Assembly (NCBI GenBank): GCA_001784435.1
Contig: MFQZ01000001.1
Location: 220,742 to 284,741, forward strand
Reading direction: 5' to 3'
DNA: 64,000 bases
Origin: Candidatus Magasanikbacteria bacterium RIFOXYC2_FULL_42_28
Lineage (GTDB): Bacteria; Patescibacteriota; Patescibacteriia; Magasanikbacterales; GWA2-37-8
The position numbers were made by a program, and so were the translations under genes. Below the pieces are notes generated by a model. The model ran no database searches, was not told the DNA's origin, and worked only from the letters and a program-made list of their open reading frames with translations. Within the stretch, counting starts at the first letter, position 1; each line of letters begins with the position of its first letter. Shown in pieces: positions 10,581 to 42,937 of this stretch.

Positions 10581-10609
10581 TTGACATTCATATATATATG
10601 TTAATAATA
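10581..10609 (+). promoter_or_regulatory. Sigma70-like promoter upstream of the GC-rich ORF.
   Basis: TTGACA (10581-10586), a 17-bp spacer, then ATAATA. Confidence 0.5.
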
Positions 10610-10616
10610 AGTGGTT

Positions 10617-10635
10617 GAGTCGGACAGTCTGACTC
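10617..10635. promoter_or_regulatory. 19-bp imperfect palindrome (GAGTCGGACAGTCTGACTC) between the promoter and the RBS, an operator-like site.
   Basis: Dyad symmetry GAGTC...GACTC around a central A. It lies just downstream of the -10 element. Confidence 0.35.
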
Positions 10636-10663
10636 GCAAAACAACCTACACGAGGAGGCAGTC

Positions 10664-10981
10664 GTGAAAATGACCCTTGGTCAAATCGCCACGGACAGAA
10701 AAAAGACAGTCGTCGTCGTTCCGATCGGAGATGGCAAAAACCTGTCTCTCGAAGACGAGGAGTGGCTGACACTGGGAGCATTCCCCGACGTCATCATCGA
10801 GATCGACTCAGAGCGGGCCTTGCCGCTCGAGGCCTATCTGGTCAACGCCGACCAGCGACACCTGCTCATCTGCCCGAAGCACGGCCACACCATCAAGACG
10901 GCTGACGGTAAGCCCTGCGAATACGAGAATGGCCAGCGCAAGCTGTCCATTCAACCTACCAACCTGTACGCGGACAGCTGA
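10664..10981 (+). CDS. Hypothetical 105-aa protein with compositionally foreign coding (GC3-rich).
   Basis: A GAGGAGG RBS at 10652-10658 precedes the GTG/ATG start. Codon usage is dominated by G/C-ending codons (CTG, GGC, GAC, ATC), unlike the neighbouring genes. No recognisable family. Confidence 0.55.
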   Translation: MKMTLGQIATDRKKTVVVVPIGDGKNLSLEDEEWLTLGAFPDVIIEIDSERALPLEAYLVNADQRHLLICPKHGHTIKTADGKPCEYENGQRKLSIQPTNLYADS

Positions 10982-11110
10982 ACTACACGCGACTCCTGCC
11001 AGAACCCCCAGGGCCTGCACATCGTTCTTTCCCACCTTCACATCCCAGGCCCGCCCATTCTTTACAATAAAAATTGCAAAGAGTGATAATCCTGGAATGT
11101 GAATAAGTTT

Positions 11111-11146
11111 AAAAAAACGCTGTCAATTTTGACGGCGTTTTTTTGG
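11111..11146 (+). terminator. Rho-independent terminator downstream of the GC-rich ORF.
   Basis: AAAAAAACGCTGTCAA-TT-TTGACGGCGTTTTTTT. The stem has one G-U pair. It is flanked by A and T runs. Confidence 0.7.
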
Positions 11147-11218
11147 GGGAAATTTTGAAATTTTAAATTTGTTTAGAATCAGGAACAATCAGTTATCCAC
11201 AGCTTAATTGATTAAACA

Positions 11219-11247
11219 TTGACAAAATGCACTTTTTTAGGTATAAT
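11219..11247 (+). promoter_or_regulatory. Near-consensus sigma70 promoter.
   Basis: TTGACA (11219-11224), a 17-bp spacer, then TATAAT (11242-11247). Confidence 0.65.
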
Positions 11248-11253
11248 ACATGT

Positions 11254-11322
11254 GTAAGTTGGAAACAGCTTACAAACAAATCGTTGGCTTGAGGGTCCCC
11301 AAAGGATCCTTTTGGCTTTTTA
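11254..11322 (+). ncRNA. Candidate small RNA of about 65-70 nt, bracketed by a consensus promoter and a terminator hairpin.
   Basis: The TSS is predicted about 7 nt after the -10. The hairpin CCCCAAAGGATCCTTTTGG at 11297-11315 is followed by CTTTTT. The only plus-strand ORF here (68 aa) overlaps the convergent NYN gene and looks spurious. Confidence 0.4.
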
Positions 11323-11353
11323 TAATAGCAACTAACCTAATTTTCGGGCATCC

Positions 11354-12121
11354 TTATAATAATTTATTCTTAAAATCGGCCGTAATTTCAGAAGATAATT
11401 CTTTAGAACGACAAATAAACTCTTTAATTTTCCGAATATCAAAAATACCCGCTTGACTTTGACCAAGCTCAACTGACACTCTCCTTGCGACCGCAAAAAT
11501 CATCACCTTCTTATTGTCATCTACCAACTGTTGGATTGGATCGGCAAAATCGCTATCCCCACTCCACAATATAAAATTATCAATATCGCCTTGGCTGTAA
11601 TCCAAAAGCATATCACGACCAATCTCAACGTCAAAATTACACTTCAACACTTTAAGTGCTTTGACACCACCGCGATTCATTTCCAGCAATTTAGAATTTA
11701 AAAATTCAATTGTCTCAACATCTAATTTATACAGAAACGGTTTAGCAATAAAATTGGCAATTACCGTCGGCGACCCAGGATCAATACCGGATACATCAAT
11801 TGACCAATTCATTACTTTAACCGGCTTCGTCTTTACTTCATAGCCGCAATCCGTGGCTGTTTTTGTATATACATTTTCTAACGGATCATTTTCCAACGTA
11901 CCATAATAAAATTTTACAATTTTTACCATCTCAAAAGAATCAAGTAGTTGCTTTAATCTTTTTAAATCAATGTGCCACCCTAACTTTTTTTGCCAATGTT
12001 TAACGTTAGCAAAATCAATATAAACATTAGTGGGCTTATCAAAAATCGCATCTAACTGTCTAATAATATCCGAAAATTTTTTAGCCAATTCAGCCACACG
12101 CGGCGTTTTTGGTTTGAACAT
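11354..12121 (-). CDS. NYN-domain protein carrying an N-terminal extension domain.
   Basis: VYIDFANV...FILWSGDSDFADPIQQLV are NYN/LabA-like motifs. Confidence 0.6.
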   Translation of the reverse strand: MFKPKTPRVAELAKKFSDIIRQLDAIFDKPTNVYIDFANVKHWQKKLGWHIDLKRLKQLLDSFEMVKIVKFYYGTLENDPLENVYTKTATDCGYEVKTKPVKVMNWSIDVSGIDPGSPTVIANFIAKPFLYKLDVETIEFLNSKLLEMNRGGVKALKVLKCNFDVEIGRDMLLDYSQGDIDNFILWSGDSDFADPIQQLVDDNKKVMIFAVARRVSVELGQSQAGIFDIRKIKEFICRSKELSSEITADFKNKLL

Positions 12122-42586: not shown

Positions 42587-42616
42587 TTGACATAACATAC
42601 CATTTAATTATATAAT
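42587..42616 (+). promoter_or_regulatory. Sigma70-like promoter upstream of a small GC-rich ORF.
   Basis: TTGACA (42587-42592), an 18-bp spacer, then TATAAT (42611-42616). Confidence 0.5.
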
Positions 42617-42647
42617 CCCAGCGAACCCCAACTCTTCGGAGGAAGAC

Positions 42648-42797
42648 ATGTTGCACGCATTGTTCGCATGTGGAGCGGCGGTTCTCCTTGGCCTCACCAT
42701 TGGCTTCGTCTCGGCGACGTACTTCAACCGACGCGCCCGCGCCAAGATGAACAAGCTGTTCGAACAGAAGCCCAACGCTAGCGATCAGCTCATCTGA
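42648..42797 (+). CDS. Small (49-aa) single-TM peptide with foreign GC3-rich codon usage.
   Basis: A GGAGG RBS at 42638-42642 precedes MLHALFACGAAVLLGLTIGFVSATYFNRRARAKMNKLFEQKPNASDQLI. It is too short for the ORF track. It sits between uvrC and uvrA. Confidence 0.45.
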   Translation: MLHALFACGAAVLLGLTIGFVSATYFNRRARAKMNKLFEQKPNASDQLI

Positions 42798-42937
42798 CCA
42801 CGAACTCCACCCGGGGCCACCAGAAAGGAGGTTCCAAGAACCACCCGCGCCCCACTTTGGCTGTAAAGTATATCATGATTTAAGTCATGATATAAATATA
42901 TATTTTACAATCAAAGTGGCGGGTGGTTTTTGTTTTG

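Follow-up and report, generated by a model that had tools for sequence, protein, structure and literature searches.

In the ToxIN, CptIN and TenpIN systems, an RNA antitoxin is paired with an endoribonuclease toxin, and these pairs play a role in abortive infection. In the TxpA/RatA and BsrG/SR4 pairs of Bacillus subtilis, the antitoxin RNA is convergent and the 3′ ends of this RNA and of the toxin mRNA overlap, and in SymE/SymR and RalR/RalA a nuclease-type toxin is under small RNA control. AvcI, a lone small RNA, acts as an antitoxin by binding its toxin and disappears when transcription is shut off (PMC10511110). Here, we compare these systems with a locus in a 64,000-nucleotide stretch of contig MFQZ01000001.1 from Candidatus Magasanikbacteria bacterium RIFOXYC2_FULL_42_28, which is the whole of the DNA analysed and is called the window below. 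The locus contains a structured small RNA gene of about 66 nt, uncatalogued before, which lies tail-to-tail with the gene for one type of NYN nuclease, an arrangement found in more than 100 uncultured bacteria.

The RNA gene in the window has its own promoter, its own intrinsic terminator and no coding potential, as is characteristic of an independent bacterial small RNA gene (Table 1). An earlier note on this DNA had proposed a small RNA at this position, and the perfect TTGACA-17-TATAAT promoter that it described is present with all 12 consensus bases. Such sites are rare: TTGACA-N16-18-TATAAT occurs twice in the window, where 0.08 are expected, and two sites were reached in none of 100 shuffles. 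Both ends of the RNA are predictions, the start being set 7 nt past the −10 element, at G11254. For the 69-nt predicted transcript, folding gives two hairpins with an energy of −25.5 kcal/mol (z = −3.9), and none of 200 shuffles is as stable. In hairpin 2, the GC closing pairs (11287–88 with 11315–16) carry a U-rich internal loop above them and then the main stem (11291–11298 with 11304–11311), which includes the G·U wobble G11295–U11307. The terminator scan of the window returned two registers, 11291–11311 and 11299–11315; the register backed by covariation is 11291–11311, closed by GC/GC. The hairpin named in the earlier note, CCCCAAAGGATCCTTTTGG, lies at 11297–11315 and is followed by its U-run, and the transcript, said to end about 30 nt before the NYN stop, has a U-run that ends 31–32 nt short of the stop codon. 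The absence of a credible plus-strand coding sequence is also borne out, as the 68-codon open reading frame (ORF) at 11250–11456 begins ahead of the predicted RNA start, crosses the terminator and overlaps the NYN gene; this ORF has no significant Pfam match and is not conserved.

The Rfam scan suggested for the candidate gave no match with Rfam 15, either for the whole window at gathering thresholds or for plus strand 11254–11322 at E values up to 10. The RNA is likewise unmatched in Rfam 15 in the 15 loci with the best-scoring family members, and no match is found near the RNA of locus L052 at E up to 10. A tRNA and tmRNA scan of the window returned none.

To place the element in its family, related loci were fetched by the NYN protein with one genome per species, giving 80 loci whose NYN proteins are 48–60% identical to that of the window. 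They come mostly from Patescibacteria, with some Omnitrophota, Acidobacteriota and Planctomycetota bins, and the labels of several bins are unreliable. Groundwater samples from Hainich (ERZ1292621 and ERZ1292622) are a source of relatives. Loss of the promoter and hairpin in relatives had been named beforehand as evidence against the RNA. The promoter, both hairpins and the U-run instead adjoin the NYN gene in all 80 loci, and the four contigs with the closest NYN relatives (91% and 84% identical) all carry the RNA as well. The unit common to the genome loci consists of the promoter, a GNRA-capped 5′ hairpin, a linker of about 13 nt and the terminator hairpin. Hairpin 1 varies between loci (for example GATCG-GAAA-CGATC and GGTTAG-AAAT-AACC), and the terminator follows the pattern GCUU-RRGGGYYCC-loop-GGRRUCCYY-UUUGC and then a U-run. 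Each of the 82 family copies has an equivalent promoter; on average, 10.1 of the 12 positions agree with the consensus, and 12 promoters are perfect. A covariance model built from 78 copies finds one copy beside every NYN gene, in the 80 loci as in the window, where its single match in 64 kb spans 11246–11325 (46 bits, E = 2e-7). In the 649 kb searched, only one match lies away from NYN, and it is weak (21 bits, E = 0.31).

The linkage was also examined in the reverse direction, by searching metagenomes with the terminator-hairpin pattern alone. This search gave 64 loci, six of which end at a contig edge. In 51 of the 58 informative loci, a NYN gene is intact and convergent with the RNA, at a distance of −12 to +30 nt. 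In L136 and L138, a full RNA lies beside a NYN remnant that corresponds to the last 20–25 or so codons (...IRDFICW...), and in L127 possibly the last few NYN codons are left beside the RNA. In L124 and L139 the RNA is present with no NYN gene. In L086 (1402–2013) and L130 (54–961), a full RNA with its promoter is retained and a convergent UPF0175/DUF3368 (PIN-like) toxin–antitoxin pair replaces NYN. More distant NYN homologues (L150 and L151) are without the RNA. Regarding viruses, GenBank phages gave no match to the intergenic region of the window and IMG/VR gave none to the RNA pattern; among viral-labelled contigs there is only one full-length NYN gene, and the RNA is present there. The RNA is a family-wide, dedicated partner of one NYN nuclease subfamily.

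Covariation across related genomes, the further check proposed in the earlier note, supports both stems. In the genome set, 97.1% of pair cells are paired, and compensatory double changes occur at 12 of the 16 pairs. The double-change cells number 224, compared with 48 ± 11 in shuffles, and none of 500 shuffles reaches the observed score; in a control with the 3′ partners slid, pairing is only 38–61%. All five modelled pairs of hairpin 1 covary in the genome set, and they covary again in the metagenome set, which was chosen irrespective of hairpin 1. The main stem of hairpin 2 shows compensatory changes at seven of nine pairs with 99% of cells paired, and its mid-stem G·U wobble is kept in 78 of the 82 copies. 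The RNA thus has the compensatory changes across homologues by which a structured non-coding RNA family is recognized. The loop of hairpin 1 is a GNRA tetraloop in 69 of 82 copies, and that of hairpin 2 is GNRA or UUCG in 44. The invariant bases are the G, C and U of GCUU (78 of 78 sequences), two stem G residues and the closing GC. Pairing reaches 97.0% when the copies are read on the RNA (plus) strand and 87.6% on the NYN strand; the latter is lower because 132 wobble pairs, including the conserved G·U, turn into mismatches. The fold belongs to the plus strand.

A side observation concerns the stem of hairpin 1, which is GATC/GATC in 40 of the 82 family copies (the window is not one of them) and so places two GATC sites in the DNA just after the start. 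These sites could matter at the DNA level, for example in methylation, given the restriction–modification neighbours and DnaA boxes described below. The stem could equally be just the commonest palindromic one.

We compared the conservation of the segments of the locus using two relatives, L145, the closest, and L146 (identity columns in Table 1). These alignments show the RNA to be under purifying selection, with a constraint above that on the flanking DNA, and its primary sequence is conserved beyond the needs of pure antisense action. Between L146 and the window, similarity extends from the −35 element to the NYN start and the surrounding genes are wholly different; a NYN protein 84% identical to that of the window is thus found with the RNA in a wholly different neighbourhood. 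Because the similarity is confined to the module while the neighbours differ, the RNA and NYN behave as one transferable unit.

Table 1. Positions of features at the small RNA–NYN locus in the window, with identity to two related loci.
Feature	Position	Strand	Details	Identity to L145	Identity to L146
Upstream intrinsic terminator	11112..11144	+	ACGCUGUCAAUUUUGACGGCGU + U-run; read from the sequence; minus-strand stem has a C·A mismatch		
Upstream segment	11150-11197			42%	6%
DnaA-box-like 9-mer (tentative)	11198..11206	+	TTATCCACA; 12 nt upstream of −35		
Sigma-70-type promoter of the small RNA	11219..11247	+	TTGACA 11219-11224, 17-nt spacer, TATAAT 11242-11247; 12/12 match	86%	83%
Predicted small RNA, about 66–69 nt	11254..11322	+	Predicted start G11254 to end of U-run	97%	96%
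Hairpin 1	11254..11273	+	8-bp stem GUAAGUUG / CAGCUUAC, GAAA tetraloop; extreme 5′ end of the RNA		
Single-stranded linker	11274..11286	+	AAACAAAUCGUUG; family consensus AAUUCUARAG; runs into GCUU		
Hairpin 2 (intrinsic terminator)	11287..11321	+	U-run 11317-11321 (TTTTT)		
Gap from RNA to NYN stop	11323-11353			68%	19%
LabA-like NYN-domain nuclease gene (255 residues), convergent with the RNA	11354..12121	-	Pfam PF01936		
Third-codon positions of the NYN gene				77%	58%

The protein encoded beside the RNA has a profile match, conserved acidic residues and a PIN-like fold, which together place it in the NYN/COG1432 group. The match to PF01936 has E = 6e-15 and 56.4 bits, compared with a cut-off of 24.2, and the AlphaFold model has a predicted local distance difference test (pLDDT) value of 92. 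The only solved structure matched by Foldseek is the LabA-like NYN protein VPA0982 (2qip), with E = 2.5e-7 and a query template-modelling score (TM-score) of only 0.47. The acidic motif D36, D164, D170, D189 and D191 is invariant in 34 homologues. This subfamily also differs from the LabA/2qip-type proteins by an N-terminal helical pair and an insertion of about 50 residues (residues ~100–155). The family comprises at least 1,934 clusters of proteins of about 250 residues that are annotated just as NYN, LabA or DUF88. An NCBIfam scan of the protein gave no match, and PADLOC gave weak partial matches to its HEC-09 and NYN models over residues 163–246 (E = 1e-7 and 8e-10). A 2017 survey of PIN-like nucleases, which counted more than 8,700 sequences in the COG1432 group, gives the function of this group as unknown (PMC5499597).

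We looked for a target of the RNA in the NYN mRNA. No conserved target is found in the 5′ leader: sequences ahead of NYN bear no relation from one locus to another, and in many cases a leader seems to be missing. Regulation via the NYN 5′ leader is rejected on this ground. A duplex between the linker and the NYN mRNA of its own locus was also considered and rejected: cognate duplexes have a mean of −10.9 kcal/mol, compared with −10.4 for non-cognate pairs and −10.3 for shuffled linkers, and the best sites are spread evenly over the gene, with no co-evolving target. As a separate observation, several loci (among them L015, L020, L025, L026, L029 and L038) have a TATAAT-like box 5–20 nt before the NYN ATG and no obvious ribosome-binding site, which suggests that many NYN mRNAs may be leaderless or nearly so.

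Convergence of the RNA with NYN is seen in 80 of 82 loci. The distance between the NYN stop codon and the terminator hairpin, measured from the 3′ foot of the hairpin, is 0–8 nt in 39 of 79 loci, with the stop codon inside the U-run, and in 31 the NYN frame overlaps the hairpin by 17–55 nt. The gap is larger than 8 nt in nine loci, and the window, where it amounts to 37 nt, is one of the more loosely spaced members of the family. The suggestion in the earlier note that the RNA could act antisense to the 3′ end of NYN is strengthened by this family-wide geometry. In the window, the RNA ends 31 nt before the stop codon, so an overlap there would depend on the 3′ untranslated region of NYN. Within 350 nt, no intrinsic terminator on the NYN strand was found in 59 of 82 loci; thus, NYN transcripts probably run antisense through the RNA gene. 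In the group of loci embedded in restriction–modification clusters, the next gene on the NYN strand starts just past the RNA promoter. Hairpin 2 was also considered as a bidirectional terminator serving NYN and was rejected, as no conserved U-tract follows the stem on the NYN strand, 59 of 82 loci gave no terminator on that strand and the pairing is asymmetric between strands.

Two related loci, L055 and L080, depart from this geometry: here the RNA gene, which keeps its own promoter, is arranged in tandem behind NYN, so the antisense overlap is not obligatory. Their NYN genes (4001–4732 in L055 and 4001–4741 in L080) contain internal stops, and we considered whether they are decayed pseudogenes. 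This is ruled out, since the in-frame stops are all TGA and nearly all fall at conserved Trp positions (43, 49, 186 and 238). From the sequences, these bins, which are labelled Saccharibacteria, apparently read UGA as Trp, in which case NYN is intact. A tyrS-like ORF in L080 (4993–6255) is likewise broken by TGA.

We tentatively favour a reading in which the independent RNA gene and the NYN nuclease would form a two-gene, toxin–antitoxin-like module with the RNA as antidote or repressor; judged from comparative sequence data, its chance of being right falls somewhat short of even. In the proposed mechanism, the strong near-consensus promoter would yield a short RNA whose 5′ end would be protected by the GNRA-capped hairpin. 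The linker and the lower terminator stem (GCUU, the U-rich loop and the G·U wobble) would be read in a sequence-specific manner, most plausibly by the NYN protein, which would resemble the case of AvcI. A second layer of control, by antisense pairing or polymerase collision, is likely too because of the near-universal 3′ overlap: the 3′ end of the NYN mRNA would be complementary to the RNA and the polymerases would converge. Should the RNA turn over quickly, its level would fall once host transcription stops, as it might during phage infection, and the nuclease would be released. In favour of this reading are the linkage to NYN, the covarying structure on the RNA strand, the sequence-level constraint, the strong promoters, the tandem loci, the mobility of the module, the restriction–modification genes near it together with the weak PADLOC matches, and the precedent of AvcI. 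Several points weigh against this reading. With the convergent, abutting geometry in 80 of 82 loci, antisense action could be the main rather than the secondary mechanism. Extensive structure and stable tetraloops may give the RNA a long life, in contrast to typical labile antitoxins. The gene family could also encode an unremarkable accessory enzyme of RNA processing whose RNA serves in autoregulation. The module in the window lies among glycolysis genes and not among defence genes. Lastly, HEC-09, the only NYN defence candidate to have been tested, protected against no phage tried (bioRxiv 10.1101/2024.01.29.577857); its similarity to the protein in the window is only distant.

Cis-antisense action or polymerase collision is the main rival. 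In its pure form, base pairing would be the sole activity of the RNA, its target being the NYN mRNA (at the 3′ end or in the 3′ untranslated region) or an operon transcript that extends into the following gene; the outcome would be double-strand-specific cleavage or polymerase interference, and the protein would never contact the RNA. This rival draws on the whole geometry described above, namely the convergence, the close spacing or overlap of the NYN stop and the hairpin, the probable read-through of the RNA gene, and the next gene beginning just past the RNA promoter in the restriction–modification group. However, we consider it rather unlikely as the full explanation, because antisense pairing alone needs no conserved sequence, yet the RNA is 96–97% identical where silent sites are 58–77% identical, and it keeps invariant unpaired bases and a fixed G·U wobble. 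Sequence-specific recognition is favoured further because the loops are stable GNRA or UUCG tetraloops instead of kissing loops, because the tandem loci L055 and L080 keep the RNA without an antisense relation to NYN, and because orphan RNAs outlast NYN decay, like orphan antitoxins; in the window, the RNA also stops short of the NYN stop codon. The view that there is no RNA gene at all, the hairpin being only a terminator or 3′ stabilizer of NYN and the promoter fortuitous, starts from the same position of the hairpin at the NYN gene end and from the ability of one hairpin between convergent genes to act for both strands. Yet the U-run is on the plus strand only, the pairing is strand-asymmetric and the conserved G·U would become C·A on the NYN strand, the promoter stands at a fixed distance in all 82 copies, and hairpin 1 begins at the predicted start and covaries. 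We exclude a mere terminator on account of the strand asymmetry and the conserved promoter, and regard this view as barely credible.

Two further rivals accept the RNA gene and give it another role. As a positive cofactor or substrate, the RNA would be a subunit, specificity element or processing substrate of a ribonucleoprotein enzyme. The one-to-one linkage, the sequence conservation and the structure fit this role equally well, and the survey of PIN-like nucleases assigns no function to LabA-like NYN proteins (PMC5499597). Nevertheless, the RNA survives beside NYN remnants (L136 and L138) or without NYN (L124 and L139), as is typical of orphan antidotes but not of cofactors; it has no variable, guide-like single-stranded segment, as the variable hairpin 1 pairs with itself; and its linker has no co-evolving target in the NYN mRNA. 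We judge this role to be distinctly improbable, and a trans-acting role even more so. In the latter, the linker would be a seed for unlinked mRNAs and NYN merely a co-inherited neighbour. The arrangement of two hairpins with a conserved single-stranded linker between them and a terminator at the end is classic for bacterial trans-acting small RNAs, and no cognate pairing with the NYN mRNA was found. A linkage to one gene family across several phyla and many neighbourhoods, in both search directions, stands against it and makes it very improbable.

The genes next to the module are highly diverse, and 120 Pfam families are represented on one side of it and 85 on the other. Restriction–modification genes are the most frequent among them, and about a quarter of the loci lie inside such clusters. 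On the NYN side these are N6_Mtase (5), N6_N4_Mtase (4), HsdM_N (3) and Eco57I (3), and beyond the RNA they are ResIII (11 of 71), Methylase_S (6), HSDR_N (3) and SNF2 (3). The order in the L074 group is methylase, KTSC-like gene, NYN, RNA and res. Ten loci (L063, L066–L068, L071, L072, L074, L075, L077 and L079) share a small gene about 130 nt upstream of NYN whose product ends ...YQYFNVPEHLYQQF...GQFLNDxIRYxYRYQK. This small gene looks KTSC-like by eye, and a Pfam scan of the ORF in L074 gave no match. In these loci, a DNA methylase gene and the gene for a ResIII/RE_endonuc restriction subunit flank the group formed by the small gene, NYN and the RNA, and the start codon of the restriction gene is just past the RNA promoter. 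In L010 (77–4604), two NYN–RNA modules lie 3.7 kb apart and flank RadC and hsdM genes, with the second NYN starting 2 nt past the hsdM stop (hsdM–NYN–RNA). The Asgard archaeon label of this contig is probably a binning error.

A second feature of the surroundings is a DnaA box close to the promoter. An exact box (TTATCCACA or TGTGGATAA, in either orientation) lies 2–11 nt upstream of −35 in 12 of 82 promoters, out of a total of just 23 exact boxes in the 649 kb. If one mismatch is allowed, 28 of 82 promoters have a box, compared with 3.8 expected. The promoters listed with a box are those of L004, L010, L014, L017, L030, L033, L037, L044, L063 and L072. The box in the window is not conserved in L145 and L146, where it keeps 5 of 9 bases. 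The association with the family promoters is, as far as the sequences indicate, a statistical one. Neighbouring dnaA or oriC was considered as the cause of the boxes and not found, the neighbours being highly variable and the boxes rare. A more elaborate version of the antidote reading would combine these contexts in an RNA-gated nuclease module of a class unrecognized so far, in which the RNA would bind and inactivate NYN. This module would have spread horizontally through Patescibacteria and several other phyla, would often be nested in restriction–modification operons as a back-up suicide or defence device, and would have its release tied to the replication state by the DnaA box found in about one third of promoters. 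As a whole, this version is possible but doubtful.

In the window itself, the module follows an enolase gene and two iPGM genes, a synteny that is kept in L145, and the gene for a DHH protein is another neighbour. The upstream terminator in Table 1 would close a preceding G+C-rich unit and shield the small RNA promoter from upstream transcription. This unit is a segment of about 60% G+C (10600–11050) in a genome of about 40% G+C, with a near-consensus promoter, TTGACA-16-AATAAT, ahead of it at 10581. It contains a 105-codon ORF (10664–10981) with no Pfam match and no significant NCBIfam match. The closest relative, L145, cannot be aligned to the segment beyond window position 10998, so the segment looks like a foreign insert between the DHH gene and the RNA–NYN pair. 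The only other perfect promoter in the window, TTGACA-N18-TATAAT at 42587–42616 on the plus strand, drives a second island of about 60% G+C (42587–42850). This island lies between two minus-strand genes and has a GGAGGA ribosome-binding site and a 49-codon hydrophobic ORF (42648–42797; MLHALFACGAAVLLGLTIGFVSATYF...). From its sequence, the product may be a small membrane peptide, possibly toxin-like and of foreign origin.

The locus matters in several respects. LabA-like NYN proteins are among the largest nuclease families of unknown function, and the linked RNA gives one subfamily a concrete hypothesis. To our knowledge, almost no characterized small RNAs are known from Patescibacteria, to which the family would add a regulatory or antitoxin RNA. 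Whatever the function, a gene that is invisible at present could be annotated with the covariance model in hundreds of genomes assembled from metagenomes. If the antidote reading is true, the module would represent a new toxin fold with an RNA antitoxin, combining the geometry of type I with a sequence constraint like that of type III, and it would bear on phage defence embedded in restriction–modification loci.

We compared the module with each of the known systems to which it bears a likeness. In the searchable literature on NYN, LabA, DUF88 and COG1432 combined with small RNA, antitoxin or defence, no description of the RNA was found. VPA0982 (2qip) shares the Pfam family and fold of the partner protein, and no RNA partner has been described for LabA-like proteins (PMC5499597). 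HEC-09 is similar in being a NYN-domain candidate embedded in a defence system; however, it matches only the C-terminal third of the NYN protein (E = 1e-7), its N-terminal region is another one and no RNA partner is reported. Neither the HEC-09 nor the NYN model of PADLOC is matched over its full length. PrrC (EcoprrI) is a latent RNase whose gene is nested among restriction–modification genes, as is about a quarter of the loci here, but it is held in check by a restriction enzyme protein and not by RNA, and the copy in the window is not beside restriction genes. Regarding nuclease-type toxins under RNA control, SymR overlaps the 5′ end of its target, and RalA is Hfq-dependent and base-pairs inside the coding region; there is no homology between either system and NYN or this RNA.

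The geometry of the NYN–RNA loci is that of TxpA/RatA and BsrG/SR4, with the same convergent 3′ ends. Those toxins are small membrane peptides, and their RNAs are about 180–220 nt long with overlaps of at least 100 nt. Their sequences are conserved only in close relatives, whereas the RNA described here is conserved across phyla and has a 255-residue partner. That partner is a soluble NYN-fold protein and not the hydrophobic peptide of less than about 60 residues that defines a type I toxin. In ToxIN, CptIN and TenpIN, the antitoxin is a tandem repeat array that lies upstream on the same strand and is processed by the toxin, and the toxins have the ToxN/AbiQ fold; here, the partner has the NYN (PIN-like) fold. 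The type III layout, with a terminator between the array and the toxin gene, is replaced by a single, convergent, downstream copy. AvcID is similar in that a single, non-repeated small RNA with its own expression neutralizes an adjacent enzyme toxin (PMC10511110). AvcI is far more abundant than the toxin transcript, and its loss activates the toxin (PMC10511110). The differences are that AvcD is a deoxycytidylate deaminase and not a nuclease, that AvcI is about 170–300 nt long compared with about 66 nt here, with no sequence or structure similarity, and that RNA–protein binding is shown for AvcI and only inferred for the NYN partner. By analogy with these systems, the NYN–RNA pair would behave as an RNA-antitoxin module that departs from type III in its layout and from type I in its toxin.

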